A stretch of DNA of 64,000 bases from Actinomycetes bacterium (GCA_021798985.1 JAJZBI010000011.1:23775-87774); one strand, 5' to 3'. Shown: positions 6,237-59,701, counted from the first letter of the stretch. Numbers and translations are program-made. Notes: generated from the sequence alone by a model not told the origin.

Positions 6237-7381
6237 GCGCGGGGTTGCGCGTCGCCCTCGACGTCTCGGCGGTGCCGGCCGAGCCGGTGGGCGCCGGGCG
6301 CTACACGATCAACCTCGCCCGGGCGCTCTCGGCCTGCGCCGCCAACGGGGCGGGGCTCGACCTCGAGCTGCTCGCCCGTCGCGACGACGGGGCGCGCTGG
6401 GGTGAGATCGCGCCGGCGGCGAGCATTCGGCCGGTCGCCCCGAGCGGAGTGGGCCCGCGCCTCGCCTGGGGGGAGTGGGGCCTCGCCGGCGCGCTGCGCC
6501 GGGCCGGTGGCGGCCCGGCCGTGCTGCACGGGCCCCATTACACGATGCCGGCGCGCTCGCCCGTCCCGGTCGTCGTGACGGTGCACGACCTCACCTTCTT
6601 TGACCATCCCGAGTGGCACGAGCGCTCCAAGGTCCTCGTCTTCCGCCGGGCGCTGCGCCGGGCCGCGGCCCGGGCCGATCTCGTGGTCTGCGTCTCGGGC
6701 CCCACCGCGGAGCGCTTCGTCGAGCTCTGCCGGCCGAGCGCGCCGGTGCGCGTCATCCCCCACGGGGTCGACCACGACCGCTTCTCGCCGAGCGAGCCGG
6801 TGGCGGGCGCGGATCTCGCCTGGGGTCGCGAGCTCGGCGTGCCCGAGCGCTACGTCCTACACCTCGGGACGATCGAGCCGCGCAAGAACCTCATCGGCGT
6901 CCTGGCCGCCTTCGAGCGACTGGCGGTCGCGGACGCCGACCTCGAGCTCGTGCTCGTCGGCCGGGAGGCGTGGGGGAGCGCGGCGCTCGACGAGGCGCTC
7001 GGCGCGAGCCCGATGGCCGGGCGCGTCCACCGGCTCGGCTACGTGCGCGACGAGGCGCTGCCGGCGCTCTTGCGCCGCGCCGCGGTGGTCGTCTACCCGG
7101 CCTTCGAGGAGGGCTTCGGGCTTCCCGCCCTCGAGGCGCTCGCCTGCGGCGCGCCGCTTGTGACGAGCGAGGGCAGCGTGATGGCGAAGAATGCCGCCGG
7201 GGCGGCACTCAGTGTGCCCCCCCGAGACGTCCAGGCGCTCACCGAGGCGATCGCCGCCGCCCTGGCGGGCGGAGCAGACCTCGAGCGCCGGCGCCGGCTT
7301 GGCGTCGAGGTCGCCGCCCGCTACAGCTGGCAGGCGAGCGCCGAGGCGCACCTGGCGGCCTACCGCGACGCGACGCTTTAG
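6233..7381 (+). CDS. glycosyltransferase family 4 (GT-B)
   Basis: ATG 6233 lies in an ATGA overlap. EEGFGLPALEALACGAPLV GT4 signature. Confidence 0.85.
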   Translation: MSAGLRVALDVSAVPAEPVGAGRYTINLARALSACAANGAGLDLELLARRDDGARWGEIAPAASIRPVAPSGVGPRLAWGEWGLAGALRRAGGGPAVLHGPHYTMPARSPVPVVVTVHDLTFFDHPEWHERSKVLVFRRALRRAAARADLVVCVSGPTAERFVELCRPSAPVRVIPHGVDHDRFSPSEPVAGADLAWGRELGVPERYVLHLGTIEPRKNLIGVLAAFERLAVADADLELVLVGREAWGSAALDEALGASPMAGRVHRLGYVRDEALPALLRRAAVVVYPAFEEGFGLPALEALACGAPLVTSEGSVMAKNAAGAALSVPPRDVQALTEAIAAALAGGADLERRRRLGVEVAARYSWQASAEAHLAAYRDATL

Positions 7382-7394
7382 TACGGTCGGGACG

Positions 7395-8318
7395 ATGCGA
7401 GCCTTGCTCACCGGTGCGTCGGGCTTCGTCGGCGGTTGGCTGCGCGAGTACCTTGAGACCCAAGGCGACGAGGTGGTGGCGCTTGCCGAGTCGATCGACA
7501 TCCGAGACGCAGCGGCGGTCGCGACTGCGCTCGGCGAACAGGAGCCCGAGGCGGTCTACCACCTCGCCGCACTGACGCATGTGGGCCGCTCGTGGGACGA
7601 GCCGGCCGAGACGTTCAGCGTCAACGCCATGGGCACCTTGAACGTGCTCGAGGCCGCCCGGCGCGTTGCCGAGCCCCCGGTGGTCCTGCTCGTCAGCTCG
7701 GCCGAGGTCTACGGCTCGGTCGGCGACGCGCCGGTGCGCGAGGATGCCCCGCTGCGACCCGTGTCGCCCTATGCCGCGAGCAAGGTCGCGGCGGAGTACC
7801 TCGGCGTCCAGGCCGTGCTCGGCCGCTCCCTGCGGGTCGTCCGGGCGCGGCCGTTCAACCACGTCGGCCCGGGTCAGGCGCCCAACTTCGTCGTCTCGGC
7901 GCTCGCCCGGCGCATCGCGCTCGCCGAGCTCGGCGGCGGGGGAGTGGTGGCCGTCGGTAACCTCGAGCCGCGCCGCGACATCACCGACGTCCGGGACGTC
8001 GTGCGCGCCTATCGCCTGCTCGTCGAGCGGGGCGCACCGGGCGAGGCCTATAACGTCGCCTCCGGCCGCACCGTCACGATCGCCGAGGTCCTCGACGAGC
8101 TCGTCGGCCTCGCCAAATGCCCGATCGAGGTGGTGCAGGACCCGGCGCTCGTGCGCCCGGTCGAGGTCCCGGTGCTCTCGGGCGACGCCACGCGCCTCGC
8201 CGAGCGCACCGGCTGGCGCGCCGAGATCCCGCTCGGCCAGACGCTCGGCGACGTCCTCGAGCACTGGCGTCTCCAGCTGCGCGACGAACCGCCGCCTGGG
8301 GAGCAGCCGGACGCCTGA
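7395..8318 (+). CDS. NAD-dependent epimerase/dehydratase (GDP-mannose 4,6-dehydratase / GDP-4-keto-6-deoxymannose reductase-like)
   Basis: ATG 7395. TGASGFVGGWL Rossmann motif and a canonical SPYAASK (YxxxK) motif. Confidence 0.8.
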   Translation: MRALLTGASGFVGGWLREYLETQGDEVVALAESIDIRDAAAVATALGEQEPEAVYHLAALTHVGRSWDEPAETFSVNAMGTLNVLEAARRVAEPPVVLLVSSAEVYGSVGDAPVREDAPLRPVSPYAASKVAAEYLGVQAVLGRSLRVVRARPFNHVGPGQAPNFVVSALARRIALAELGGGGVVAVGNLEPRRDITDVRDVVRAYRLLVERGAPGEAYNVASGRTVTIAEVLDELVGLAKCPIEVVQDPALVRPVEVPVLSGDATRLAERTGWRAEIPLGQTLGDVLEHWRLQLRDEPPPGEQPDA

Positions 8319-8331
8319 GCGCCTCGAGCTG

Positions 8332-8553
8332 CTAGCGCCGGCCCTGCTGGGCGCGCGTCGCCACCTCGCGCAGCGGTCCGGTGATCGGCTCGGCGAGCGC
8401 GTCGGCGGCCGCCCACAGCCGTGCCAGCAAGTTGGCGTCGCCAAGGCGTCGCTGGCTCGCGCGCACGCGCTGGAGGCCGAGCACCGCCATCCCGACGGCC
8501 AGATAGAGGCCCTCTTCGAGGCTGTGCTCGAGCTCGGCGCGCGGCGTCGTCAT
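8332..8553 (-). CDS. small hypothetical protein (73 aa)
   Basis: Only the 3' end of the 1026-aa antisense track ORF is used. ATG at 8553 (MTTPRAELEH...). Strong G/C third-position bias. No family recognised. Confidence 0.45.
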   Translation of the reverse strand: MTTPRAELEHSLEEGLYLAVGMAVLGLQRVRASQRRLGDANLLARLWAAADALAEPITGPLREVATRAQQGRR

Positions 8554-8634
8554 CGCCAGCAGGCTACCGCCGGCCACGCGGCCGACGGCCCGCCCGGCTA
8601 CGGTTTGCTCCCTGATGCTGGAGCACCCCGCCTG

Positions 8635-39007: not shown

Positions 39008-39541
39008 ATGACGAGCGCAACAGCGGACGCCGTCGGGGCCAGGGGCACGCCAGGGGTGCCAGCGGGCCCAGCGCATCCAAGCGAGGACCGGCGCTGGCGC
39101 CAGGTCGACGTGCGGATCCGCCGGCTCGGGGCCCGGCCCGACGGCCTCATCGAGGTGCTCCACACCCTCCAGCAGCTCTTCGGCTACCTCGATGACGACG
39201 CGCTTGCCTATGTGAGCGAGGCGCTCGGGGTGCCGCCCAGCCAGGTGATGGGCGTAGCGACCTTCTACTCGTTCTTCGTTTTGAAGCCTCAGGGCGCCCA
39301 CACCTGCGTCGTGTGCACCGGGACCGCCTGCTACCTGAACGGCGCGAAGGCGATCCTGCGGGCGCTTCGCGAGGCCCTTGGCGTCGAGGTCGGCGGGACC
39401 ACCGCGGACGCGAGCCTCTCGCTGCTCGGCGCTCGCTGCCTCGGCGCCTGCTCGCAGGCACCCGCCGTGGTGCTCGACGGCGAGGTGCACGGCAAGGTGC
39501 TTGCCGAGGAGATCACCGCACTGGTGGCGAGCCATGCCTGA
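39008..39541 (+). CDS. hoxE: bidirectional [NiFe] hydrogenase diaphorase subunit HoxE (NuoE-like 2Fe-2S)
   Basis: ATG 39008 follows GGAGG. Thioredoxin-like 2Fe-2S motifs CTGTAC...CLGAC. Confidence 0.88.
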
Positions 39542-41198
39542 GCCCGACGACGCCCCGGCCCGAGCGCGCCACCACGAGCCTGTGCTCCCCGAGGGCCCGG
39601 TGCGTGCCACGGCGAACGTCTGCCACGCCGCCGGATGCCTCTCGCTCGGCTCCGACCTCGTCTTCGACCGCCTCTGCGAACGCGTCGAGGCGTCGGGCAC
39701 CGACGACGTGGGGGTGCGCCGGGTCGGCTGTCTCGGCCTGTGCGCGCAGGGCCCGCTCGTGAAGGTGCCCGAGCACGACCGCCTCTATGCCAAGGTGCCC
39801 GCCGAGCCCGACGAGCTCGATCAGCTCGTGGAGCAGTTCCGCTCGGGGACCGGCGGCCTCGTCGTCTCCGAGGACCCCTTCTTCGCCCGCCAGGTCAAGG
39901 TGGTCCTCCGCCACTGCGGGTCGGTCGATCCCGAGGAGGTCGAGGACTACGTCGCCAAGGGGGGATACGCGGCGCTGCGCAGGGCGGTGACGGAGATGAC
40001 CCCCGAGGAGGTCGTCGCTGAGGTCACCGAGAGCGGGCTGCGCGGGCGCGGCGGTGCCGGCTACCCGACCGGCCTCAAGTGGGCGACCGTCGCCAAGTCC
40101 GGCGAGGGCGGCCACAAGTACGTGGTCTGCAACGCCGATGAGGGGGATCCGGGGGCCTTCATGGACCGCAGCGTGCTCGAGAGCTGCCCGCAACAGGTGC
40201 TCGAGGGCATGGCGATCGCCGCCTATGCCGTCGGCGCCAACGAGGGCTACGTGTACGTGCGCGCCGAGTACCCCCTTACGGTCCGGCGGCTCAACTCGGC
40301 GATCCGCCAGGCCGAGCGCGCCGGGCTGCTCGGCACGGCGATTGCCGACACGAGCTTCTCGTTCCACCTCGAGGTGCGCATCGGTGCCGGGGCCTTCGTC
40401 TGTGGCGAGGAGACCGCCTTGTTGGCCTCGATCGAGGGTCGGCGGGGGACGCCCCGGCCGCGCCCGCCCTATCCCGCCGCCGCAGGGCTGTTCGGCGAGC
40501 CGACGCTCATCAACAACGTCGAGACCTTCGCCAGCATCTCGGCGATCATCGAGCGCGGCGGGCGGTGGTACGCGGCGATCGGCGCCAACAAGAGCCGCGG
40601 GACCAAGGTCTTCGCGCTCGCCGGGGCGGTCGAGCGCACCGGGCTGATCGAGGTGCCGATGGGCCTCAGCCTGCGCCAGATCGTCTTCGAGATCGGCGGC
40701 GGCGTGCCCGGCGGGCACCGCTGCAAGGCCGTGCAGACCGGCGGCCCCTCGGGAGGCTGCATCCCCGAGGAGCTGCTCGACATGCCGGTCGACTACGAGT
40801 CCCTCGTGAGCGCCGGGTCGATCATGGGCTCTGGCGGCATGATCGTGATGGACGAGACGACCTGCATGGTCGACGTCGCCCGCTACTTCATGGACTTTTG
40901 CCGAGAGGAGTCCTGCAGCCGGTGCGTCCCCTGCCGGGCGGGAACCGTCCAGATGCACCGGCTGCTCGATCGCATCTGCTCGGGCCTCGCCACCCGCGCC
41001 GACCTCGAGCGCCTCGAGCGCCTTGCGGCGATGGTCCAGCGCGCGAGCCTGTGCGGCCTCGGCCAGGGCGCGCCGAGCACCGTGTTCTCGACGCTCCGCT
41101 ACTTCAAGGACGAATACCTCGCCCACATCGATCACCGGACGTGCCCGGCCGGGGTGTGCGAGATGGCCCCGTTTGAGATGGCGGGGAGTGGACGATGA
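39534..41198 (+). CDS. hoxF: diaphorase subunit HoxF (NuoF-like, FMN/NAD(P)H)
   Basis: ATG 39534 overlaps the hoxE end by 8 nt. [23 protein letters not shown] and an N-terminal 2Fe-2S domain. Confidence 0.92.
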
Positions 41199-41899
41199 GC
41201 GTCGTCACGCTGGTGATCGACGGGCACGACGTCGCCGGTCAGAGCGGCCAGAGCATCTTGTCGGTAGCGCGCGAACACGGCATCGCCATCCCAACGCTGT
41301 GCCATCTCGATGGGCTCTCGGAGGTGGGCGCGTGCCGCCTGTGCATGGTCGAGGTGCGGGGGGCGAGGCGCCCGCTCGCCGCCTGCGTCACCGAGGTGCA
41401 AGAGCACATGGAGGTGACGACCACCACCGACGAGCTCACCGACTACCGCCGCCAGATCATCGAGCTGTTGTTCACCGAGCGCAATCACGTCTGCGCCGTC
41501 TGCATCGCCAACCGGCACTGCGAGCTGCAAGACCTCGCCAAGGCGCTCGGGATGACGCACTTCGACCTGCCGGCGCTCAATCCGTCCGCCGGCGTGGACG
41601 CCAGCCACGAGCGCTTCGGGATCGACCACAACCGCTGCGTGCTCTGCACGCGATGCGTGCGCGTCTGCGCCGAGATCGAAGGAGCCCATACCTGGGACGT
41701 GCGCGGCCGGGCCAGCGAGGCGAGGGTGATCACCGACCTCGGCACCCCCTGGGGAGAGTCGCCCACCTGCACGAGCTGTGGCAAGTGCGTCCAGGTGTGC
41801 CCGACCGGAGCGCTGTTTGAGAAGGGTCGGGCGGTCGCCGAAGGCAAGGAGCGGCGCCCCTACGTCCCCTTCCTCGTCGCAAGGAACCGGAGGTCTTGA
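41195..41899 (+). CDS. hoxU: diaphorase subunit HoxU (NuoG N-terminal-like Fe-S protein)
   Basis: ATGA overlap. 2Fe-2S (CHLDGL..GACRLC) and 4Fe-4S ([23 protein letters not shown]) motifs. Confidence 0.9.
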
Positions 41900-41900
41900 G

Positions 41901-42431
41901 ATGGCAAAGCCGCGGCTCGCCACGATTTGGCTGGACGGCTGCTCTGGCTGTCACATGTCCTTCCTCGACCTCGACGAGCGCCTCTTCGACGTCTTCGCCC
42001 GCGCCGAGCTCGTCTATGGTCCCCTGGTCGACGCCAAGGAGTTCCCCGAGGATGTCGACGTCACGCTCGTCGAGGGCGCCGTCAGCACCGAGGACGACCT
42101 GCGTCGGGTGCGCGAGGTGCGCGCCAAGACCAAGATCCTCGTCTCGCTCGGCGACTGTGCGGTGACGGCGAACGTCCCGGGCATGCGCAACCCGCTCGGC
42201 CCGAAGGCGATCTTGGAGACCGCCTACGCGAGCGGCGTCACGGGCGCGTCGGCGGCGCCGAGCGAATGGGTCCCGGCGCTGCTCGAGCGCGTGCAGCCCG
42301 TGCACGCGGTTGTGCCGGTCGACGTGTACCTGCCGGGGTGCCCGCCCTCGGCCGACGTGATCGCCGAGGCGATCGACCAGCTGCTCGCCGGTCAGCTGCC
42401 TGACACCGCGCACCTGGCGAGCTTCGGCTGA
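41901..42431 (+). CDS. hoxY: [NiFe] hydrogenase small subunit HoxY
   Basis: ATG 41901, 1 nt after the hoxU stop. WLDGCSGCHMSFLD proximal-cluster motif and GCPP. Confidence 0.9.
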   Translation: MAKPRLATIWLDGCSGCHMSFLDLDERLFDVFARAELVYGPLVDAKEFPEDVDVTLVEGAVSTEDDLRRVREVRAKTKILVSLGDCAVTANVPGMRNPLGPKAILETAYASGVTGASAAPSEWVPALLERVQPVHAVVPVDVYLPGCPPSADVIAEAIDQLLAGQLPDTAHLASFG

Positions 42432-42450
42432 GCCGGACAAGGACGATGCG

Positions 42451-43869
42451 ATGAGCGAGATCATCATCGAGCCGGTCACAAGGATCGAGGGCCACTCCAA
42501 GATCACGGTGCAGCTCGACGACACCGGCGAGGTCGTCGACGCCCACTTCCACGTGACCCAGTTCCGCGGCTTCGAGCGGATCTGCGTGGGCCGCCCGCTC
42601 TGGGAGATGCCCTCACTGATGGCGCGCATCTGCGGCATCTGCCCCGTCAGCCATCTGATCGCGTCAGCGAAGGCCTGCGACGAGATCCTCGCCGTCGAGA
42701 TCCCTCCGCTGGCACGCCGGCTGCGGCGCGTCATGAACCTGGCGCAGATCGTGCAATCCCATGCCCTGAACTTCTTCCATCTCTCCTCGGCTGACCTCGT
42801 CTTCGGCTTCGACGGGGACCCGAAGGAGCGCTCCTTCGCGGGGGTGGCCGAAGCCGCCCCCGAGCTCGCTCGCGACGGCGTGGCGCTGCGGCGCTTCGGC
42901 CAGCAGATCATCGAGCGGCTCGGCGGCAAGCGCATCCACCCGGCCTGGGTCGTTCCCGGCGGGGTGAGCCGCCCGCTCGAGGCCGCCCAGCGCGACGCGA
43001 TCCTCGCCGAGGTGCCCGACGCGAGAGCACGAGCCAAGCGGGCCCTTGGCTGGTACAAGGAGCACCTCGCTCGCTTTGCCGAAGAAGCGGACCAGTTCGG
43101 CAACTTCCCGAGCCTGTTCATGGGGCTCGTGCACGAGAGCGGGCGGGCTGCTTATTCCGAAGGCTTGTTGAAGGTGGTCGACGCCAATGGCTGGGTGCTG
43201 GCGGACCAGGTCGATCCCAGGCCGTATTGGGAGTATCTCGGCGAGCACGTCGAGCCGTGGAGCTATCTGAAATCGCCGTATTTCAAGCCGCTCGGCTACC
43301 CCGATGGCCTCTACCGGGTCGGTCCGCTCGCCCGGCTGAACGTCATCGACCGGCTCGGGACTCCGAGCGCGGACGGCGAGCTCGCCGAGTACCGCGAGCG
43401 GCTCGGCCGCTATCCCCAGAGCTCGTTCCACTACCACTGGGCACGGCTCATCGAGATCGTGCACTGCATCGATGCAATCGAGCACATCCTCTCCGAGCCG
43501 GACATCTTGGACCACCACGTTCGCGCCGAGGCGCGCGTCAACCGCAACGAGGGAGTCGGCGTTGCCGAGGCGCCGAGGGGGACGCTCATCCACCACTACC
43601 AAGTGGACGACCACGGCCTCGTCGAGTCCGCCAACCTCGTCATCGCGACCGGCCACAACAACCTGGCGATGAACGCCGCGGTGAAGCAGGTGGCCCGCCA
43701 CTACGTCCACGGCCCGGACGTGGCCGAAGGGATCTTGAACCGGATGGAGGCGGCCATCCGCTGTTTTGACCCCTGCCTCAGCTGCTCGACGCATGCGATC
43801 GGACAGATGCCGCTTGCGATCGAACTGCGCGCCCCCGACGGCACGATCGTGCGCGAGGTGGCGCGGTGA
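42451..43869 (+). CDS. hoxH: [NiFe] hydrogenase large subunit HoxH (group 3d type)
   Basis: L1 RICGICPVSH and L2 DPCLSCSTH, followed by a 24-aa C-terminal extension. Confidence 0.93.
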   Translation: MSEIIIEPVTRIEGHSKITVQLDDTGEVVDAHFHVTQFRGFERICVGRPLWEMPSLMARICGICPVSHLIASAKACDEILAVEIPPLARRLRRVMNLAQIVQSHALNFFHLSSADLVFGFDGDPKERSFAGVAEAAPELARDGVALRRFGQQIIERLGGKRIHPAWVVPGGVSRPLEAAQRDAILAEVPDARARAKRALGWYKEHLARFAEEADQFGNFPSLFMGLVHESGRAAYSEGLLKVVDANGWVLADQVDPRPYWEYLGEHVEPWSYLKSPYFKPLGYPDGLYRVGPLARLNVIDRLGTPSADGELAEYRERLGRYPQSSFHYHWARLIEIVHCIDAIEHILSEPDILDHHVRAEARVNRNEGVGVAEAPRGTLIHHYQVDDHGLVESANLVIATGHNNLAMNAAVKQVARHYVHGPDVAEGILNRMEAAIRCFDPCLSCSTHAIGQMPLAIELRAPDGTIVREVAR

Positions 43870-44682: not shown

Positions 44683-44723
44683 GGAGACCTTCGCCGAAGC
44701 GGCGAAGGTCCAAGCGCCCTAGG
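44678..44723 (+). terminator. extended hairpin between hypA and nifJ
   Basis: GACCTTCGCCG-aag-CGGCGAAGGTC perfect 11-bp stem (44686-44710), flanked by CCTAGGG/CCCTAGG (44678-44684 / 44717-44723). There is no U-tract. Confidence 0.4.
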
Positions 44724-44776
44724 CGCCGATGCTCGGCCGGCGATACACCGGGACGAGCCACCCGAGGAGGCATGGC

Positions 44777-47700
44777 GTGAACAGCCCACAGCGCATCTGT
44801 GTCGACGGGAACGAGGCGGCGGCGCGGGTCGCCTACCAGCTGGCCGAGGTGGTCGCGCTCTACCCGATCACCCCGTCGTCTCCGATGGGAGAGCATGCTG
44901 ACGACTGGGCGGCGGCGGGCACGCCGAACCTGTTCGGCCAGGTGCCCGCCATCGTCGAGATGCAGTCCGAAGCCGGCGCTGCCGGAGCGCTGCACGGCGC
45001 CCTGCAGAAGGGCGCGCTCGCCACCACCTTCACGGCCTCCCAGGGGCTGTTGTTGATGTTGCCGAACATGTTCAAGATCGCCGGCGAGCTGCTGCCGACG
45101 GTGATCCACGTGGCGGCGCGCAGCATCGCCACCCACGCGCTGTCGATCTTCGGGGACCACTCCGACGTGATGGCGGCGCGGGCGACGGGCTTTGGGATGC
45201 TCGCGTCCTCCTCGGTCCAAGAGGCACAAGATCTCGCTGCCATCGCCCACCTCGCGACGCTGCGCTCGCGCGTGCCGTTCCTGCACTTCTTCGACGGCTT
45301 CCGGACCTCCCACGAGGTGGCGACGATCGTGCCGCTTCAGCCTGGTGATCTCGAGGCGCTGGTGGACCGCGAGGCGATCCGCGCCATGCGCCTGCGCGGC
45401 ATGAGCCCCGACCGCCCCGATGTGCGGGGCACCGCGCAGAACCCCGACGTCTTCTTCCAAGGCCGCGAGGCCGCCGCGCCCTACCACGCCCGGGTGCCTG
45501 CGATCGTGACGGCGGCGATGGACGCCTTCGAGCGTCGCTGTGGTCGGCATTACGCCGTGGTCGAGTACCACGGCGCCCCCGACGCCGAGCGCGTCGTCGT
45601 GGCGATGGGGTCGGGATGCGGGGCGATCGAAGAGGCGGTCGACACCTTGGTGGCGCGGGGCGAGCGGCTCGGGCTGTGCAAGGTACGCTTGTACCGTCCC
45701 TTCCCCGCGGGCGAGTTCGTCGCTGCCCTGCCGCCGAGCGTGCGGGCGATCGCAGTCCTCGATCGCACCAAGGAGCCCGGTGCGGTCGGCGAGCCCCTCT
45801 ACCTCGATGTGCGCGCCGCCATCGACGAGGCGATGGAGCACACCGAGGCGCCCTTTGTGGTCGCCCCGAAGGTGATCGGCGGCCGCTATGGGCTGTCGTC
45901 CAAGGAGTTCACCCCACCGATGGCCAAGGCCGTCTTCGACGAGCTCGCTGCCGCCTCCCCCAAGGCGCACTTCAGCGTCGGGATCGACGACGACGTCTCG
46001 TCCTCGAGCCTTGCCGTAGACCCCGACTTTCGCGTGGAGATCGCCGAAGCGCCCTTCCAGGCGGTCTTCGCCGGCCTCGGTTCGGACGGGACGGTGGGGG
46101 CGAACAAGAACAGCGCCCGCATCATCGCCGCCCACGGTGATACGAACGTGCAGGCCTATTTCGTCTACGACTCGAAGAAGTCCGGATCGATCACGATCTC
46201 GCACCTTCGATTCGGCCCCCGGCCGATCAATTCGAGCTACCTCATCGACGAGGCGGATTTCGTCGCCTGCCACCAGTTCAATCTGCTCGAGCGGGCCAAG
46301 GTGCTCGACATCGCGCGACCGGGCGCGACCTTGCTGTTGAACAGCCCGTACCGTGCGGAGGAGACCTGGCACGCGCTGTCGGCGCGCGCCCAGCGCCAGA
46401 TCCTCGACAAGAAGCTCCGCTGCTTTGTGATCGACGCCCACCAGATCGCGAGCGAGCACGGCCTCGGCACGCGGATCAACACCGTCATGCAGGTCTGCTT
46501 CTTCGCCCTCAGCGAGCTGATGCCGATCGAACAGGCCGTGGCGGCAATCAAGGCGGCGATCGAGCGCAGCTATGGTCGCCGGGGCCCCGAGGTCGTCGCG
46601 CGCAACTTCGCTGCGGTGGATGCTGCGCTGGCCGGCTTGCAGCCGCTCGAGACACCGATGCGGTTCGCGGCGGAGCCGGCGCCGCCGCGAGCTCCCGAGG
46701 ACCGCTTCGCCGGGGCGCCGGACTTCGTCCGTGAGGTGACGGCGGTCTTGCTCGCCGACGACGGGGACCGCCTGCCGGTCTCGGCGATGCCGCCCGACGG
46801 CCGTTTCCCCTCGGGCACGGCGCGCTACGAGCGTCGGGCGATCGCCAGCGAGATCCCGATCTGGGACCCCTCGCTGTGCACGGACTGCGGCAAGTGCGCC
46901 ATCGTCTGCCCGCACGCCGCGATCCGCATGAAGGTCTTCGAGCCCGACGCGATCACCGGCGCGCCCGACGGGTTTCTCGCCAAGCCCTTCCGTTCGAAGG
47001 ACCTCGCCGGGCACCTGCTCAGCATCCAGGTGGCGCCGGACGACTGCACGGGATGTGGGATCTGCGTCGAGGTCTGCCCGGCGCACTCCAAGACCGAGGC
47101 GTGGAGGAAGTCGATCAATCTCGAGCCGGCGCTCGCGCACCGCGACGAGGAGCGGGTGCGCTGGGACTTCTTCAAATCGATCCCCGAGCTTGCCCGCGAC
47201 GCCCTGCCGCACGACAGCGTGAAGGGCGCGGCGGTCCTCGAGCCGCTCTTTGAGTTCTCTGGCGCCTGCGCGGGGTGTGGCGAGACCCCCTACCTCAAAC
47301 TGTTGAGCCAGCTCTTCGGCGACCGGCTGCTCGTCGCCAACGCGACGGGGTGCTCGTCGATCTACGGCGGCAATCTCCCGACCACGCCGTGGGCGCACGA
47401 CGCGTCGGGCCGCGGACCGGCGTGGGCGAACTCGCTGTTCGAGGACAACGCCGAGTTTGGCCTCGGCATCCGCCTCGGCCTCGAGGCCGAACAGCGCGCG
47501 GCACGCGACCTGCTCGTCGGACTCGCCCCCGAGCTCGACGCCGAGCTCGTCGCCGGTCTGTTGCACGCGAGCCAGGAAGGCGAGGCCGACATCGTTGCGC
47601 AGCGGGCGCGGGTGGCCGAGCTAAAGCGCCAGCTTTCCGGCCTCGGCGGCGAGCGCGCCGAGGCGGCCTCGGACCTGCTGGCGTGCGCCGACGAGCTCGT

Positions 47701-48412
47701 CGACAAGTCGGTGTGGATCGTCGGCGGAGACGGCTGGGCCTATGACATCGGCTTCGGCGGCCTCGACCACGTCCTTGCCTCGGGGCGCAACGTCAACGTC
47801 TTGGTGCTCGATACCGAGGTCTACTCCAACACCGGTGGGCAGGCGTCCAAGGCCACGCCGCGCGGCGCCGTGGCGAAGTTCGCGGCCTCGGGCAAGATCA
47901 CCGCGAAGAAGGACCTCGGGGAGATCGCGCGGGCCTACGGCGACGTCTACGTGGCCCAGGTGGCCCTCGGCGCGAGCGACATCCAGACGATCAAGGCGCT
48001 CCTCGAGGCGAACGCCCATCCCGGCCCCTCCCTCGTGATCGCGTACTCGACGTGCATCGCGCACGGCATCGACATGGCGACCTCGATGGCGCACCAGCGT
48101 GACGCGGTGCGCAGCGGGTACTGGCCGCTGTATCGCTACCGGCCGACGACGGCGAGCGAGGGGCATCCCTTCAGCCTCGACGCGAAGGATCCGAGCGTCC
48201 CGATCGCCGACTTCGTCAAGAGCGAGGTTCGCTACGCCTCCCTTGCCCGGAGCGACCCCGCGCGCGCCAGCGAGCTGGTGGAGCTGCTGCAGCAAGACAC
48301 CGAGGAGCGCTGGCGTTACTACCGCCAGCTGGCGGGGCTGGAGCGGACGATGCACGAGCCGGACGCCGAACTTTCGGCCGGCAGGGTCCAGGTGATCGAG
48401 GAGGAGCAGTGA
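44777..48412 (+). CDS. nifJ: pyruvate:ferredoxin (flavodoxin) oxidoreductase, monomeric NifJ/PFOR type
   Basis: GTG 44777, 6 nt after GAGGAGG. About 1211 aa with PFOR domains I-VII. Internal 2x CxxCxxCxxxCP and a TPP GDG motif (GGDGWAYDIG). Confidence 0.95.
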   Translation: MNSPQRICVDGNEAAARVAYQLAEVVALYPITPSSPMGEHADDWAAAGTPNLFGQVPAIVEMQSEAGAAGALHGALQKGALATTFTASQGLLLMLPNMFKIAGELLPTVIHVAARSIATHALSIFGDHSDVMAARATGFGMLASSSVQEAQDLAAIAHLATLRSRVPFLHFFDGFRTSHEVATIVPLQPGDLEALVDREAIRAMRLRGMSPDRPDVRGTAQNPDVFFQGREAAAPYHARVPAIVTAAMDAFERRCGRHYAVVEYHGAPDAERVVVAMGSGCGAIEEAVDTLVARGERLGLCKVRLYRPFPAGEFVAALPPSVRAIAVLDRTKEPGAVGEPLYLDVRAAIDEAMEHTEAPFVVAPKVIGGRYGLSSKEFTPPMAKAVFDELAAASPKAHFSVGIDDDVSSSSLAVDPDFRVEIAEAPFQAVFAGLGSDGTVGANKNSARIIAAHGDTNVQAYFVYDSKKSGSITISHLRFGPRPINSSYLIDEADFVACHQFNLLERAKVLDIARPGATLLLNSPYRAEETWHALSARAQRQILDKKLRCFVIDAHQIASEHGLGTRINTVMQVCFFALSELMPIEQAVAAIKAAIERSYGRRGPEVVARNFAAVDAALAGLQPLETPMRFAAEPAPPRAPEDRFAGAPDFVREVTAVLLADDGDRLPVSAMPPDGRFPSGTARYERRAIASEIPIWDPSLCTDCGKCAIVCPHAAIRMKVFEPDAITGAPDGFLAKPFRSKDLAGHLLSIQVAPDDCTGCGICVEVCPAHSKTEAWRKSINLEPALAHRDEERVRWDFFKSIPELARDALPHDSVKGAAVLEPLFEFSGACAGCGETPYLKLLSQLFGDRLLVANATGCSSIYGGNLPTTPWAHDASGRGPAWANSLFEDNAEFGLGIRLGLEAEQRAARDLLVGLAPELDAELVAGLLHASQEGEADIVAQRARVAELKRQLSGLGGERAEAASDLLACADELVDKSVWIVGGDGWAYDIGFGGLDHVLASGRNVNVLVLDTEVYSNTGGQASKATPRGAVAKFAASGKITAKKDLGEIARAYGDVYVAQVALGASDIQTIKALLEANAHPGPSLVIAYSTCIAHGIDMATSMAHQRDAVRSGYWPLYRYRPTTASEGHPFSLDAKDPSVPIADFVKSEVRYASLARSDPARASELVELLQQDTEERWRYYRQLAGLERTMHEPDAELSAGRVQVIEEEQ

Positions 48413-54178: not shown

Positions 54179-56281
54179 ATGGCCAGGCGGTGGGCACGCT
54201 TGGTGCTGGCCCACAAGAACCTGATGCTCGGCCTCTGGCTCGTGCTCGCGGCCCTCGGCGCGATCGCTTCGCGGACGCTGCCGGGGTTGCTGACGACCTC
54301 GCTCGCGGTGCCCGGCAGCCAGAGCGCCGCCGCCGATGCGCGCTTGTCGCAGGGCTTTGGGGCCAACGTCGAAGGCGCGTTCGTCGTCGTGCTCGCCCAT
54401 TCCCCGGCGCGCGCCGCTGCGCTGTCGGCCGACGACCGTCGGCTGCGCGCCGCCGCCTCGGTCATCGCCGGGGCGACGACGAGCAGCTTCGCGTCGAGCG
54501 GCGGTGCGGCCTACGCGACCGTGCAGAGCCCGCTCGGCCTCAAGGCGGCCGCCGCGGCGACCGCATCGCTGCGCGCGTCGCTCACCACCCACCACCTCGC
54601 TCGGGCGGAGGTGACGGGCGCGCCCGCGCTGCAGGCGGACGTGACGCCGTTGCTCGCCCACGACCTGGCGGTCGGTGAGGTGGTGGCGGGCGCGGTCGCC
54701 GTGTTGGTCATCGCCGCCGTCATCGGGCCCTCGCTTGCCGCGCTGATTCCGCTGCTCGCCGCCGCGGGAACGGTCGCCGTGGCGCTCGGTGCGCTGTGGG
54801 TGCTCGCGCACTTCGTCGTGATGGTGCTGTACGTGCCGAATCTCGCCGAGCTCATCGGGGTCGGGATCGCGCTCGACTACTCGCTCCTCATCGTCCGTCG
54901 CCATGCCGAGCACGTGGCGGACGGCATGAGCCGATCCGAGGCGGTCCTGGCGACGATGGAGAGCGCCGGCCGGACGGTGGCGTGGTCAGGGCTGACGGTC
55001 GCCGTGGCGTTGTCGGCACTCTTTGTCGTCGACGTCCCCTTCATCCACTCCCTTGCCGTCGCCGGAGTGCTCGTGCCGCTGGTGGCGGTCGCCGCCGCGC
55101 TCAGCCTCCAGCCCGTCTTGCTGAGCCTCCTCGGCTCGTTCCGCCGTGGGGCACTGTCGGACTCCGCATCGCCCGCCTGGGGGCGCTTCGGTGCCCTGGC
55201 GGTGCGTGCGCCCCGCCGCACGCTCGTCGGCGCCCTCGTGCCGCTCGTCGCGCTGGCGATCCCGCTCGGATGGCTGCAGCTCACGCCGACCTCGCTCCGG
55301 GCGCTGCCGGGCTCGCTCGCCTCGGTCCCGCCCCTCGCCGTGCTCTCCGAGCGGTTCGCCCCGGGACTGGTCACGCCGATCGATGTGGTGGTGACGACCT
55401 CGGCGCGAGGCGGCGCGCTGCGCGCCGACGTCTCGGCGGCGACGCTGCGCCTCGCGCGCGAGCTGCTCGCTAACGAAGATGTGGCGGTCGTCGCCATCGG
55501 TTCTCGCCCACCCTACGTCGACCGGGCACGCCGCGACCGGCTGATGGTCGTCGTCGCCCGCTCCTCGCTGGACGCGCCGGCGACCGGCGCGCTGGTGGGC
55601 GAGATCCGCGGCGAGCTCGGCCGCCGGGCGCGACTGCCTGCGGGCGCCTCGCTGCTCGTCGGGGGCGCGCCGGCCCAAGGCGTCGACTTCATCGCCCGCG
55701 TCGACGGCGCCATCCCGATCATCGGCGCCTGGCTCGGGCTGGCGAGCCTCGTGCTGTTGAGCGTGAGCTTCGGCTCGCTCGTGCTGGCGCTGCTCGCCAT
55801 CGCGCTCGACGTCGTGGCGATCGCGGCGGCCTTCGGCGCGACGGTCGCGGTCTTCCGCTTCGGTGCCGGTGTGCCCTTCGGTCGCTACCACGTCGGCGCG
55901 CTCGAGGCGTGGGTGCCGGTGTTCTTGCTGGCGATGCTCTTCGGGTTGTCGATGGACTACGAGATGTTCATCGTGCGGCGCATCCGCGAGGCGCGTCAGG
56001 CCGGGGCCGAGGACGCCTCGGCGATCGTCGCCGGGCTGGCGGGGACCGGTCGGGTGGTGAGCGCCGCGGCCTGCATCATGGTCGGCGCTCTCTTCGGCCT
56101 CTACGCCGGCTCGGTCGCCGGCCTGCAAGAGCTCGGCGTCGGTCTCGCCCTCGGCGTGCTGATCGACGCGTCGGTGGTGCGCGCCCTCGTCCTTCCCGCC
56201 GCGATGGCCCTACTCGGCCGTTTTGCGTGGTGGTTGCCCGGGCGCCCACCGCCCCGGGGCGCGCCGGCGCCGCCCGCGTGA
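54179..56281 (+). CDS. MMPL family (RND superfamily) transporter
   Basis: Two blocks of ~6 TM helices, each preceded by an extracytoplasmic loop. MMPL-type sequence. Confidence 0.85.
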   Translation: MARRWARLVLAHKNLMLGLWLVLAALGAIASRTLPGLLTTSLAVPGSQSAAADARLSQGFGANVEGAFVVVLAHSPARAAALSADDRRLRAAASVIAGATTSSFASSGGAAYATVQSPLGLKAAAAATASLRASLTTHHLARAEVTGAPALQADVTPLLAHDLAVGEVVAGAVAVLVIAAVIGPSLAALIPLLAAAGTVAVALGALWVLAHFVVMVLYVPNLAELIGVGIALDYSLLIVRRHAEHVADGMSRSEAVLATMESAGRTVAWSGLTVAVALSALFVVDVPFIHSLAVAGVLVPLVAVAAALSLQPVLLSLLGSFRRGALSDSASPAWGRFGALAVRAPRRTLVGALVPLVALAIPLGWLQLTPTSLRALPGSLASVPPLAVLSERFAPGLVTPIDVVVTTSARGGALRADVSAATLRLARELLANEDVAVVAIGSRPPYVDRARRDRLMVVVARSSLDAPATGALVGEIRGELGRRARLPAGASLLVGGAPAQGVDFIARVDGAIPIIGAWLGLASLVLLSVSFGSLVLALLAIALDVVAIAAAFGATVAVFRFGAGVPFGRYHVGALEAWVPVFLLAMLFGLSMDYEMFIVRRIREARQAGAEDASAIVAGLAGTGRVVSAAACIMVGALFGLYAGSVAGLQELGVGLALGVLIDASVVRALVLPAAMALLGRFAWWLPGRPPPRGAPAPPA

Positions 56282-56314
56282 GGCGGGCGGCGCGCGGGCA
56301 GGGGAGGCGCCAGA

Positions 56315-57898
56315 TCAGCCGACGATGCGGATCGCCAGGCGGATGGCGGGGAGGTGGTAGCCGAGGGCGAGCGCCGGCTCGTCCTGGGCGTAGGTGAGCA
56401 CCGGCACCATCCCATAGGGCGTGTTGGCGAACGAGGGGGACTCGGTGTAGATCATCGGATAGATGTCGATGAGGTGGATCCCCGGCCCGCCCGTCGCGTG
56501 CAGGGGCAGCACCACGTCTCCATTGGAGTTGAAGCCGCAGCCATAGCCGAGGTAGCTATTGTCGTAATCGACCGCGATCGTGTTGTCGAGCTGGGTCCAG
56601 CCGACGCCCTTCAGGTGGATGGTGAAGGCCTGGCCCTCTTTCAGCGTGATCGCCGACAGGCCCGGGCCGACGAGGCTCTCTTGGAGGTAGAAGGGGACCT
56701 GGGCGAGCACCTTGTTGTCCTGCTCGACCTGGACCACGTGCCAGCCCCCGAGCCCGTCAGGGACCGTAAGCGTGCTCGACAGGCTGGTCCCTGACGGGGT
56801 GGCCGTCGCGAGCGGGATCGACGTGAAGGCCCAGCAGACGCTCTTGCAGTTGACGCGGCTTCCGACGACCGTGGACCAGACGAGCTGGGTGGGCACGCCA
56901 GGAGCCAGGCCGCTCACGGTCGCCTGGAACGAGGCGCCGACCGCGCCGCGGGTTGTCGAGAGCGCGAGGCCGGCGCCGGAGGCCGGCGCCGAGCCGGTCG
57001 GCGCGAGGGTCGTGCGCGCCGAGACGGTCGGGGCGACCTCGTCGGGCCAGTCGATCGAGGGCGCGGGGAGGGTCGTGTCGGCGGTCACCTCGAAGGTCGC
57101 GGTCGCGCCCTTGGCGAAGGGGAGCGGCGACTGGGGCAGGTTGAGGTACAGGAAGCTGATGGCGTCGCCGACCTGGATGACGTGCGGGCCGACCGTGCCC
57201 GAGGCGCGGATCACGACGCGGGCGACGCCGCGCGTCCAGTTCGCCATCATCTCGCCGACGTAGTGGTTGTCATAGAGCAACGACGCCCCACCTTCGTACA
57301 GCGACGCGCCAATGCCGCGGTAGGTGACGGTGATCGGTGTGCCGACCGGACCGCTGCGCGGGCTGATGGTGACCGACCGAGTGATGATGAAGCCGCCGTG
57401 GGCGTGCTCGACGCCGTTGACGACGGCGTAGATGTCGTGCACGCCGCCCCAGTCTTGAGGGGCCCGCACGGTGGTCGAGAAGGCGCCAGCGGCATTGGTG
57501 GTGGCGTGCGCGAGCACGACCGTGACCGGGGTGGAGGAGCGGCCGAGGTAGTTGACCGAGTCCGGCTGGGGATCGACGAGCCAGGTGTTGTTCGCGCTCG
57601 ACCACGTCAGCTCCACCGAGGCGTTGGCGGCAAGGTGGGATCCCGAGATGTGCATCGGGGTCCCGGCGACGGCCTGGTCGGGGGTGACCTTCAAGATGCC
57701 CATGTCGCTCGCCGGCTTGGCGGGGGCTGCGATCGGCCCGGGGAGGGGGGCGACGCCGGGGATCGCCGGCGGCGGGAGCGCGACGGCCGTGGTCGAGCTC
57801 GGGCTCGTCGCGGCGAGGCTCGCCGGGACGAAGGAGACCAGCGCGGTGGCGATGCCGAGGAACACCCCAGCGGCGAGCCGAGCGCGAATGTGATTCAT
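56315..57898 (-). CDS. exported protein with four Ig-like (IPT/TIG-like) repeats, function unknown
   Basis: ATG 57898. Sec signal MNHIRARLAAGVFLGIATALVSFVPASLA. Four segments fit the pattern [VL]x[VI]xPxxGxxGTxhxhxGxG. Confidence 0.7.
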   Translation of the reverse strand: MNHIRARLAAGVFLGIATALVSFVPASLAATSPSSTTAVALPPPAIPGVAPLPGPIAAPAKPASDMGILKVTPDQAVAGTPMHISGSHLAANASVELTWSSANNTWLVDPQPDSVNYLGRSSTPVTVVLAHATTNAAGAFSTTVRAPQDWGGVHDIYAVVNGVEHAHGGFIITRSVTISPRSGPVGTPITVTYRGIGASLYEGGASLLYDNHYVGEMMANWTRGVARVVIRASGTVGPHVIQVGDAISFLYLNLPQSPLPFAKGATATFEVTADTTLPAPSIDWPDEVAPTVSARTTLAPTGSAPASGAGLALSTTRGAVGASFQATVSGLAPGVPTQLVWSTVVGSRVNCKSVCWAFTSIPLATATPSGTSLSSTLTVPDGLGGWHVVQVEQDNKVLAQVPFYLQESLVGPGLSAITLKEGQAFTIHLKGVGWTQLDNTIAVDYDNSYLGYGCGFNSNGDVVLPLHATGGPGIHLIDIYPMIYTESPSFANTPYGMVPVLTYAQDEPALALGYHLPAIRLAIRIVG

Positions 57899-57985
57899 CG
57901 GAGCGAGCCTTTCAGTGAAGGGGGAAGCGCAGGAGCCGGGCGGCAACCGGGGGCGCCGGTCGGTGCCCCCGGTTGCCGATTCGGC

Positions 57986-58549
57986 TCAGTTGATGGTGAG
58001 TCGCGAGGTGGCGGGAAGGCCCCGCTGGGTGAAGACGCCGCTGAGCGAGGGGACGGCCTTGGCGGTCCCGGTGGCCGCGACGGGCTTGGTGACGACGGTC
58101 ACGTGGAAGTCCACGACGCCGAGCGGGTAGGACGCGGTCGGGATCCACGCCGCGGTCCAGTACGAGGTCGTGCCATGGGTCCCGTACGCGAGCGGGATCT
58201 TGCCAACCCCGGGCACGTACACCCATGCCGCCTTGACGTTGTCACCCGTGAGCGCCATGCCGCGGTCACGGACGTTGACGCCCCACATCCGGAAGACCAC
58301 CTGCTGGGTCTGCTGGAAGAGGTTGGTCATCCCGCACGGCGCACTGGGCTTGGGTGAGCCTGAGCTTCCCTGCACGGTGTCGACGTACAAGAAGAGCGCG
58401 TGCTGGCTCGCGCCCTGCACCGGGGGCGCCGGCGTCGTGGTCGTGGTGGTCGAGGCCGCGCTGGCGCTCGGTGCGCTCGTCGCGAGCGCCCCGAGCCAGG
58501 CCGGTGCGGCCAGCGCGAGCGCGACCGCTCCTCCAACCAGTTTTCTCAT
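57986..58549 (-). CDS. exported hypothetical protein with Thr-rich linker
   Basis: Sec signal MRKLVGGAVALALAAPAWLGALATSAPSASA, then a STTTTTTPAPP linker and a ~140-aa beta-rich domain. Confidence 0.7.
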   Translation of the reverse strand: MRKLVGGAVALALAAPAWLGALATSAPSASAASTTTTTTPAPPVQGASQHALFLYVDTVQGSSGSPKPSAPCGMTNLFQQTQQVVFRMWGVNVRDRGMALTGDNVKAAWVYVPGVGKIPLAYGTHGTTSYWTAAWIPTASYPLGVVDFHVTVVTKPVAATGTAKAVPSLSGVFTQRGLPATSRLTIN

Positions 58550-58589
58550 CTGTATTCTCCCTTCCTTGGTCTGCGGGTGAGGAGCGAGC

Positions 58590-59168
58590 TCAGCGGACCG
58601 ACAGGCGGCCGTGCAGGGTCACGGTGAAGCTGCCGGACTGGGATCCCGAGGTGCCGCCGAGCTTCAAGGTGCCGCTGAAGGCGAGAGATCCGCTCGCCCC
58701 CTTGTCCTTGCCGGTGCCACCGGTCGCCTTGGCGATCCCCTTGAAGGTCACCGTGACCGGGCCGCTCTCGCCGCTCGAGCACCCCTTGGCGGTCGAGTCC
58801 GCGACCGTGAAGTTGATGGTCCCACCGGTGCCCACGATGGCGCCCTTGCCGGTGAAGGGGTCGCACAGCGCTGACGCGCTTGCGCTGCCCGATCCTTTGA
58901 TCGTGCTCCTGCCCACGAGGGCGGCCGTGCCGGTGCCCGAGCCTTGGACCGAAGAGATCGTGGCGGTGCCGTTGTTGATCAACAGCGCCGCGGTTCCCTT
59001 GTAGTGGCCGACGAAAGCAACGCTGCGGTGCCGGACTGCGGCGATTGCGTTGGTTTGCAGCGCCATGGTGGCGGTGGCGGCGAGCGGGATCAGCGCCAGG
59101 TAGTGGGCGCGGCGCCGAGATTGGCGAAGCGACTGGTCCGTCGGCGGCCGTTGGACGATCGGGGTCAT
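58590..59168 (-). CDS. Tat-signal Gly/Ser/Thr-rich exported hypothetical protein
   Basis: ATG 59168. Twin-arginine motif SRRRAHYLAL followed by a hydrophobic region. The mature part is G/S/T-rich beta repeats. Confidence 0.65.
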   Translation of the reverse strand: MTPIVQRPPTDQSLRQSRRRAHYLALIPLAATATMALQTNAIAAVRHRSVAFVGHYKGTAALLINNGTATISSVQGSGTGTAALVGRSTIKGSGSASASALCDPFTGKGAIVGTGGTINFTVADSTAKGCSSGESGPVTVTFKGIAKATGGTGKDKGASGSLAFSGTLKLGGTSGSQSGSFTVTLHGRLSVR

Positions 59169-59464
59169 GGGGGCTCTCCCTTCGGCGGGATCGCGTGGTC
59201 TTGGCATGCGAACCCGCACCACTCGTAGTGCGACCCTTGCAGATCAGCATCCGCCACCGCGAGCGAACTAGGGACTAAGGGCACAAGGGGAGTGCAGGAA
59301 GTCCTGGTGGTGAGGTACATTGGACTGACGCTTTCGAGCAGGGGGATTTCGCGTTCGGACAAGGGGTCTTTCGCCCCCTGACACCTCGTGGTGGCGTGGC
59401 TGATGCTTGGACCAAAGCGATGCCGGGCCGCGCGATGGCGTGACCTCGGGCACGGGAGGAGCAG

Positions 59465-59701
59465 ATGCGGCCCGACGAGTCGTGGATGGACGAGGCGGCG
59501 TGTCGCGGACGGTCGCCCGAGCTGTTCTACGCGAACGACGAGGTGCTGCTGCGTGCCGCAGTGCAGGTCTGCTCGAGCTGCCCGGTCCGCCGCCAATGCC
59601 TCGAGTACGCGCTCAGCTACGGCATCGAGGACGGCGTGTGGGGTGGCCGTACCGAGCGCGAGCGGCGGCGGATGCTGCGATCGATGCGCCGGAGCGCATA
59701 G
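59465..59701 (+). CDS. WhiB-family (Wbl) Fe-S transcription factor
   Basis: Four Cys (C...CSSCPVRRQC), a GVWGG turn and a basic tail. GGAGGAG lies before the ATG. Confidence 0.92.
   Translation: MRPDESWMDEAACRGRSPELFYANDEVLLRAAVQVCSSCPVRRQCLEYALSYGIEDGVWGGRTERERRRMLRSMRRSA

Follow-up and report, generated by a model that had tools for sequence, protein, structure and literature searches.

What do three adjacent genes, each encoding an exported protein of no characterised family, do together outside the membrane, and what do they work with? The genes, here called A, B and C, lie on the minus strand (56315..59168) of a 64,000-nucleotide stretch of DNA from an Actinomycetes bacterium (GCA_021798985.1, JAJZBI010000011.1:23775-87774), referred to below as the window. 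A preliminary description, made from the sequence alone, saw in them an operon flanked by genes for an MMPL exporter and a WhiB-like regulator, and suggested an extracytoplasmic complex or surface structure, possibly acquired horizontally. Comparison across genomes establishes that the unit is four genes, A, B, C and the MMPL gene, not three. We therefore propose, as a tentative reading that falls a little short of an even chance, that A, B and C work outside the membrane as partners of the MmpL3-type MMPL exporter encoded next to them, and that the four genes make up one cell-envelope export module.

Linkage of A, B and C to an MMPL transporter gene

When each species was represented by a single genome, C turned up in 395 genomes. 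Linkage was counted in the best 80 of these by running the window's proteins against each locus with tblastn, and every denominator given here is the number of loci with enough flanking sequence. The 80 are all metagenome-assembled genomes (MAGs), from Acidimicrobiia and Gaiellaceae/Thermoleophilia, and they come from peat (bog, fen, palsa and SPRUCE) and from soils. Homologues of A, B and C likewise derive nearly all from Acidimicrobiales MAGs, with no named protein among them. Three MAGs with a complete or partial module are labelled otherwise, as Chloroflexota (L085), a proteobacterium (L027) and Umezawaea (L086, on a 2.7-kb contig); these outliers may reflect mis-binning or rare transfer.

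B lies upstream of C in 71 of 74 testable loci and A does so in 65 of 70, which bears out the grouping of the three genes in the preliminary description. The MMPL gene lies directly downstream of C in 67 of 71. That description had the neighbours and their directions right (MMPL convergent, WhiB divergent), but it took the MMPL gene for a mere flank when it is the conserved fourth member. In 14 Gaiellaceae/Thermoleophilia loci the MMPL gene runs in the same direction as C, so that A, B, C and MMPL form a tight operon whose genes abut. In one of these (L063), A occupies 3395-3919, B 3939-4883, C 4884-6464 and MMPL 6529-8634, and the abutting stop of B and start of C at 4883/4884 suggest translational coupling. 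Rearrangement does not separate the four genes: A immediately precedes MMPL, on its strand, in L047, and in L087 all four genes fall inside 6 kb. Loci lacking an adjacent MMPL gene proved to be second copies in the three cases that could be checked, since the same MAGs hold a complete module elsewhere (L040 with L026, L054 with L041, L037 with L017).

The transporter gene of the window (54179..56281, plus strand) encodes a 700-residue RND transporter of the MMPL family with an MmpL3-like minimal core (PF03176; MDA8295095.1, 'MMPL family transporter'). The protein matches PF03176 at E 4.7e-60 and 203.7 bits (cut-off 20.5), in two stretches, one for each half. Its closest solved structure is MmpL3 (E 5.5e-46), with MmpL5 (E 7.6e-30) and MmpL4 (E 1.1e-26) behind. 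The proton-relay motif of transmembrane helix 4, GIALDYSLLIV (Asp233-Tyr234; 54863..54895, plus strand), aligns with GIAIDYGLFIV of MmpL3 (7nvh), and that of transmembrane helix 10, LSMDYEMFIV (Asp593-Tyr594; 55946..55975, plus strand), with LSTDYEVFLV. Because both Asp-Tyr motifs are kept, the protein is very probably an active proton-driven exporter. It is not identified as an MmpL3 orthologue: it reaches none of the NCBIfam equivalog cut-offs, the MmpL3 model NF052608 giving 172.6 bits where 1400 are required, and at 700 residues it has no C-terminal domain.

Genes A, B and C and their products

A, B and C are three consecutive open reading frames, with the sizes first described and with spacers of 40 nucleotides between A and B and 87 between B and C. 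The 3' ends of C and the MMPL gene converge, 33 nucleotides apart (56282-56314), and A is separated from the WhiB gene by 296 nucleotides. The three gene models are identical to MDA8295098.1 (A), MDA8295097.1 (B) and MDA8295096.1 (C), each labelled 'hypothetical protein' at NCBI, where the copies lie on contig DAHVUF010000089.1 of MAG GCA_027357925.1. Shine-Dalgarno-like sequences (GAAGGGAG, GGAAGGGAG and AAAGG) precede the three starts. The frame of A stays open 5' of its ATG as far as a GTG at 59222, and that of C as far as a TTG at 57946.

Base composition speaks to both the reality and the origin of these genes. G+C content at third codon positions (GC3) is 0.89 in A, 0.90 in B and 0.93 in C, within the window's range of 0.78-0.94, and all three follow the window's pattern of GC3>GC1>GC2. 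These values, together with hundreds to thousands of homologues, mark A, B and C as real genes and not chance reading frames. The block had been described as less G+C-rich than its surroundings. There is such a dip (at 56.4-56.8 kb the G+C content is 0.647, the mean of the window being 0.722), but comparable dips occur elsewhere in the window and GC3 is not lowered in it; the lower total G+C stems from first codon positions, the proteins being rich in Thr, Ser and Asn. The proposal of horizontal acquisition did not hold up, because GC3 and the codon-position pattern are native and the locus, WhiB gene included, is syntenic in the nearest relative (L008).

All members of families A, B and C carry N-terminal signal or anchor sequences, in agreement with the first assignment of the proteins to the extracytoplasmic side. 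Their lack of a characterised family was confirmed as well. When A, B and C were scanned against Pfam and NCBIfam, no match rose above chance level or reached threshold, and a sequence search of the PDB with single sequences or family profiles gave no significant match. In profile-profile comparison A, B and C were unrelated to one another. The number of Cys residues is fixed in both bacterial classes, at two in A, one in B and three in C.

Protein C (527 residues; 56315..57898, minus strand) is the most conserved member of the module, above the transporter itself. Across the 80 species the median identity to the window copy is 63% for C, 52% for A, 52% for B and 47% for the MMPL protein. With the closest relative excepted, C keeps 57-70% identity across the two classes, and its homologues form more than 2000 clusters. 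An AlphaFold2 model of C is compact and almost wholly beta (pLDDT 81.3, pTM 0.81), with four sandwich domains. The starts of these predicted domains coincide with the four Ig-like repeats noticed earlier by eye.

Domain D1 (residues 61-173; 57380..57718, minus strand) is an Ig-like sandwich with a long beta-hairpin, as judged from the strands assigned by DSSP in the model, and D2 (residues 174-273; 57080..57379, minus strand) is a TIG-like sandwich with a conserved YDNHYVG motif. D3 (residues 308-407; 56678..56977, minus strand) repeats D1 and carries an invariant C351-x3-C355 in its hairpin loop. D4 (residues 408-527; 56318..56677, minus strand) repeats D2 and carries the invariant motif YDNSYxGYGC454GFNS. 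The protein is thus internally duplicated as (D1-D2)x2, and hhalign supports this at 98.2% and E 2.9e-14 for D1D2 against D3D4, 96.2% and E 2.1e-9 for D1 against D3, and 95.0% and E 3.5e-8 for D2 against D4. TIG (PF01833) is matched at E of at most 0.01 by 30 of 82 C homologues (best 7.1e-6), the window copy itself being below threshold. C has exactly three Cys, the invariant C351, C355 and C454, alongside five invariant His and numerous invariant Trp, Tyr and Asp. The loops at 246-254, 347-350 and 486-495 are among the most conserved parts of C yet the least confidently modelled, as would be expected of sites for a partner or ligand.

The makeup of C raises the alternative that the locus encodes a structural or adhesive surface assembly, S-layer-like or wall-associated, built mainly of C, with A and B as minor components and the MMPL protein only loosely related. 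C has four Ig-like domains, and its best Foldseek match is the S-layer glycoprotein of Haloferax volcanii (7ptp, E 1.1e-10). All three proteins are exported, and B has a Thr-rich stalk like the O-glycosylated linkers found in surface proteins. Of the C homologues, 11 of 120 (about 9%) are predicted lipoproteins on the strength of a lipobox-like L-[SGA]-[SA]-C motif. The statement in the preliminary description that no sortase or lipobox signal is present therefore stands for the window copies of A, B and C, which lack both LPxTG and lipobox, but not for the whole C family.

Set against this, the structures that Foldseek retrieved with C are all multi-Ig proteins of a generic kind (an S-layer glycoprotein from an archaeon, alpha-2-macroglobulin, MG domains of complement), and their template modelling (TM) scores stay below 0.2. 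C shares with such IPT/TIG tandem-Ig proteins a series of four beta-sandwich domains, but it lacks their thioester domain, bait region and lattice-forming features. The model is a compact, duplicated body and not an extended fibre, and C is far more conserved than is usual for a surface Ig-repeat protein. The window copies have no sortase, SLH or other anchoring motif; a Pfam scan of C gave no match to the SLH domain. A surface assembly would also leave unexplained why linkage to the MMPL gene persists through inversions and rearrangements. With the MMPL protein as the conserved partner, a surface structure is less likely than a set of transporter accessory proteins, so that of the earlier suggestion the extracytoplasmic location is kept and the surface structure loses ground. 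We regard a surface assembly as rather improbable.

Two specific identities for C were considered and dropped. A sortase signal was rejected, since the sole LAPTG is internal (residue 298, in the D2-D3 linker), has variable middle columns and is followed by no anchor; the window copy ends in ...LAIRIVG. An alpha-2-macroglobulin or thioester identity was rejected on the TM scores and on the helices of the model, of which there are only two short ones (residues 246-250 and 508-511), too small for a TED domain. The invariant GYGC454GFNS recalls the GCGEQ thioester motif only superficially.

Protein B (187 residues; 57986..58549, minus strand; 107 homologues) consists of an N-terminal hydrophobic helix, a Thr-rich stalk and a predicted Ig-like beta-sandwich of eight strands. 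The first 41 residues (58427..58549, minus strand) hold the hydrophobic N-terminus and the poly-Thr/Pro stalk. The N-terminal hydrophobic run has a median of 23 residues in B homologues, against 15-16 in A and C; this is the length of a membrane anchor, and the segment may be either a signal peptide or a signal anchor. The poly-Thr stretch first remarked on in the window copy recurs in the family, runs of at least four Thr/Ser being present in 75 of 103 homologues. The AlphaFold2 model (pLDDT 86.7) consists wholly of beta structure from about residue 50 to residue 187, and 86% of B homologues are basic. Its one invariant Cys is C72, with exactly one Cys in 100 of 107 homologues, and H125 and D57 are nearly invariant. 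The B proteins of Gaiellaceae (L052-L083; for example 3939-4883 in L063) are longer, at about 300-320 residues, because the domain is present twice in tandem, and the invariant Cys is found in the C-terminal copy alone.

The fold of B points to a different possibility, an extracytoplasmic module for metal (Cu/Fe) handling or redox chemistry. B would be a metal binder like P19, FetP or FtrA, C would hold metal through its invariant His and Cys, A would be a domain of the kind fused elsewhere to cupredoxins, and a metallophore would be the cargo of the MMPL protein, just as MmpL4 and MmpL5, named siderophore exporters in the PDB, export siderophores. The best Foldseek matches of B are FetP (5i0x), P19 (3lzo), FtrA (8vv5) and Tp34 (2o6c), a coherent periplasmic Cu/Fe cluster with probabilities of 0.97-1.00. 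These Cu/Fe-binding proteins, like B, are exported and have one beta-sandwich domain, and they act together with a transporter in the membrane, as B may do. Candidate ligands are at hand in C351-x3-C355, C454 and the five invariant His of C, and in C72, H125 and D57 of B. Two distant relatives of A (P0402 and P0407) are fused to plastocyanin/azurin-type or cupredoxin domains.

The matches of B are weak, however (E about 0.01, TM scores of 0.36-0.46 and so below 0.5), and amount to a generic Ig-like sandwich. Pfam scans of 74 B members found no recurrent family above noise, and no match to P19 or any metal-binding family. The partner of P19-type proteins is the FTR1 permease, whereas the conserved partner here is an MMPL protein; the called genes of seven neighbourhoods include no FTR1-type Pfam family, and neither an FTR1-type permease nor a cupredoxin gene was seen in the neighbourhoods examined. 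P0407, the only cupredoxin-A fusion with usable gene context, does not adjoin an MMPL gene. The transporter is nearer to MmpL3 than to MmpL5 or MmpL4 and much shorter than the MmpL4/5 chains, and the N-terminal domain copy of Gaiellaceae B has no Cys. A metal or redox module is, in our judgement, distinctly unlikely.

Protein A (192 residues; 58590..59168, minus strand) is basic and Gly/Ser/Thr-rich, these three residues making up 46.6% of the mature protein, as its first description had it. Its sequence pattern is apparently that of a beta-rich protein. The family is small, with 132 homologues collected and 193 clusters among 1.84 billion representatives in an exhaustive profile search, and a Pfam scan of every member gave only noise. 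The mature protein is net positive in 100% of homologues (median +9). C102 and C130 are invariant, exactly two Cys lie beyond residue 45 in 117 of 120 homologues, and the pair presumably forms a disulfide. The signal peptide (residues 1-44; 59037..59168, minus strand) has an RRR motif and a weakly hydrophobic core. It had been read as a twin-arginine (Tat) signal. The motif is there in the window copy (SRRRAHYLAL) and its closest relatives, with a short hydrophobic core (a run of 9; KD19 1.38), but a Tat-like RRx-hydrophobic pattern occurs in just 7 of 120 homologues and most N-termini are plain Sec-type, so Tat export was rejected as a trait of the family.

A Pfam scan of long relatives showed that distant A-domain proteins (P0402, P0407, P0385, P0428 and P0392; L088-L090) are fused to fn3, neocarzinostatin-family, plastocyanin/azurin-type or cupredoxin domains, and the contigs of the fusions other than P0407 are too short for gene context. 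A broadened A profile had a single match in the PDB, the pyocyanin demethylase PodA (E 0.016), in a stretch of 25 residues with the motif tGGTGkfkgAkGtL. A literature search on the structure of PodA returned no paper.

These relatives of A bear on a third alternative, a system for binding and expelling small molecules, whether toxins, phenolics or secondary metabolites. Outside the cell, A would capture a ligand of hydrophobic or aromatic character, and efflux would fall to the MMPL protein, as drug efflux does to ActII-ORF3-type transporters and MmpL5. In its favour, the MMPL protein matches the actII MMPL subfamily TIGR00833 (E 3.9e-39), the MmpS5L5 complex exports hydrophobic drugs (PMC12501195), neocarzinostatin-family domains are those of chromophore-binding apoproteins, and 13 loci have a divergent TetR-family gene upstream of A. 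The match to PodA, though, is below significance as well as short, and the fusions reveal no more than that the A domain serves as a module outside the cytoplasm. Beside the four genes there is no conserved biosynthetic gene cluster, and the strong conservation of C would go unexplained. We consider small-molecule efflux of this kind very unlikely.

A possible export mechanism and its closest analogues

What the data show directly is that the genes are linked, that the proteins carry export signals, how B and C are predicted to fold, and that the proton relay is intact; that the proteins touch one another, what each of them does and what is exported are inferences. The reading that we favour, with A, B and C as partners of the MMPL exporter, can be put as a sequence of steps. 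The MMPL protein would use the proton gradient to lift an amphiphilic substrate from the membrane into its outer-face domains. This substrate would probably be an envelope lipid or glycolipid, or possibly another hydrophobic small molecule. B would dock on the transporter or organise it, in a role like that of MmpS for MmpL4 and MmpL5. C, as a rigid and acidic body of four Ig-like domains, could be a platform or receiver beyond the membrane, and A, which is small, strongly basic and probably disulfide-bonded, could serve as an adaptor or soluble carrier. In 89% of its homologues mature C is acidic, and A and B are basic. These opposite charges and the constant numbers of Cys (2/1/3) suggest that the proteins form a complex of set stoichiometry, in which an intermolecular disulfide may join B and C; the odd counts in B and C may indicate either such a bond or functional thiols. 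A bolder version, in which A, B and C, held together perhaps by a B-C disulfide and by complementary charges, form a new machine of the wall zone on an MmpL3-type transporter, with B as an MmpS analogue, C as the platform and A as the shuttle, seems to us somewhat unlikely.

Transporters of this family with dedicated helpers are known. MmpS5 is a protein with a single transmembrane helix and a C-terminal Ig-like domain, and it is required for MmpL5 function; it has an intradomain disulfide, and the C137S change abolishes function (PMC12501195). MmpL3 has dedicated, non-homologous accessory proteins in complex with it, TtfA and MSMEG_5308 (PMC6593404). MmpS-MmpL pairs (MmpS4/5 with MmpL4/5, of the HAE-2 RND type) and MmpL3 with its accessory proteins would be the closest functional analogues of the module.

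The likeness to MmpS-MmpL pairs is one of layout. In both, a transporter is linked to a small Ig protein with one N-terminal helix, a place taken here by B with its predicted helix and its modelled extracytoplasmic domain (residues 50-187), and B would, like MmpS, be specific to its transporter. B is larger than MmpS and has the Thr-rich stalk, and two further orphan proteins, A and C, are present. The transporter is short and MmpL3-like, without the insertion of the MmpL4/5 proteins (964-1008 residues). Gene order differs too, being mmpS-mmpL in the known pairs and A-B-C-MMPL or convergent here; B and the MMPL gene share a strand in 14 loci, with C between them, and are convergent in 53.

As for MmpL3, it is the closest solved relative of the MMPL protein and both keep the two Asp-Tyr proton-relay motifs, while the long C-terminal cytoplasmic domain of MmpL3 is missing. 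The host lineages, Acidimicrobiia and Thermoleophilia, are not known to produce mycolates, unlike the hosts of MmpL3. A, B and C match no Pfam or NCBIfam family and hence offer no link to TtfA or the beta-propeller partner, with which no direct comparison was made. At least one tested defining feature is absent for each known class considered, namely MmpS, P19, Tat substrates, sortase-anchored proteins and thioester proteins.

Several observations weigh against a partnership of A, B and C with the exporter. First, of the 67 loci in which C and the MMPL gene are neighbours, 53 (the window among them) have the two genes converging, so that the MMPL gene belongs to a separate transcript there. 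Second, there are B-C loci with no adjacent MMPL gene (L005/L040, L037 and L054 as second copies, and L044 presumably so), of which L054 retains A and the others lack it, implying that B and C can function away from an adjacent MMPL gene. Third, the comparison of B with MmpS stops at layout: PF05423 (MmpS) is absent from the Pfam matches of 74 B members at E of at most 1, the top 50 Foldseek matches of B include no MmpS structure, and B has one Cys where MmpS5 has an intradomain disulfide. Finally, no lipid-binding fold emerged for A, B or C, contact between them and the MMPL protein is as yet hypothetical, and these lineages are not known to possess mycolic acids or an outer lipid layer.

One of the second copies has a feature of its own. 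At L005 (9390-14304, the same locus as L040) a convergent pair of genes for FtsX-type permeases occupies the usual position of the MMPL gene. MMPL and FtsX/MacB-type permeases have in common that they handle substrates on the outer side of the membrane. FtsX permeases were nonetheless rejected as a general alternative partner, being found at the paralogue locus of one genome only.

Genomic context and significance

The 296-nucleotide divergent intergenic region upstream of A (59169..59464) presumably contains the A-B-C promoter; a promoter scan found no sigma-70-like site in it. A scan of the block for promoters and terminators gave one intragenic chance match and zero terminators, and an Rfam search gave no match inside the block. 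No intrinsic terminator-like hairpin was found between the convergent C and MMPL genes, and in L001-L003 the called genes overlap by 8 nucleotides (11616-11623 in L001).

The divergent WhiB regulator gene (59465-59701, plus strand; PF02467, E 4.8e-22) is conserved only in L008, at 84% identity. The 13 loci with a divergent TetR-family gene, about 150-300 nucleotides upstream of A, belong to one Acidimicrobiia sub-lineage (they include L001/L013/L018/L020/L022/L023/L029-L031/L045/L046), and there TetR is a candidate local regulator of the module. Both genes are lineage-specific, and we rejected them as members of the module. The remaining flanking genes are conserved within sub-lineages only.

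Elsewhere in the window, a full-length raiA RNA motif (RF03072; 18538-18796, plus strand) reaches 128.8 bits (E 2.2e-31), the gathering score being 101.3, and is the sole Rfam family above threshold. Genes at 39339-43869 and 44723-48412 (both plus strand) encode an NAD-linked [NiFe]-hydrogenase (Nuo51/HoxF-like and NiFeSe large subunit) and a 1229-residue pyruvate:ferredoxin oxidoreductase, and genes for GAPDH and PEP synthase/PPDK follow. This cluster represents an anaerobic-type energy metabolism and is unrelated to the module.

Nearly all that is understood about MMPL transporters comes from pathogens that produce mycolates, in which MmpS and TtfA have a central part in building the envelope and in drug resistance. 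A literature search on MmpL proteins in Acidimicrobiia or Thermoleophilia found no paper. RND/MMPL exporters with accessory proteins are already known; what is most likely new here is an MMPL exporter with a highly conserved set of three extracytoplasmic proteins from orphan families. This accessory set is unrelated in sequence to MmpS and more conserved than the transporter, C far more so, and C occurs in at least 395 species-level genomes of abundant uncultured Actinomycetota of soil and peat.

If the link to the exporter is functional, it would define three new protein families and provide a handle on the roles of MMPL pumps outside Mycobacteriales. It would be an independent, convergent case of a membrane-anchored Ig-domain helper for HAE-2 RND pumps, and it would point to an exported envelope component in lineages relevant to carbon cycling in peat and soil. 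Should the bolder model of a wall-zone machine be true, widespread Acidimicrobiia and Thermoleophilia would export a dedicated envelope lipid or glycolipid, and would have an envelope layer that has so far gone unrecognised.

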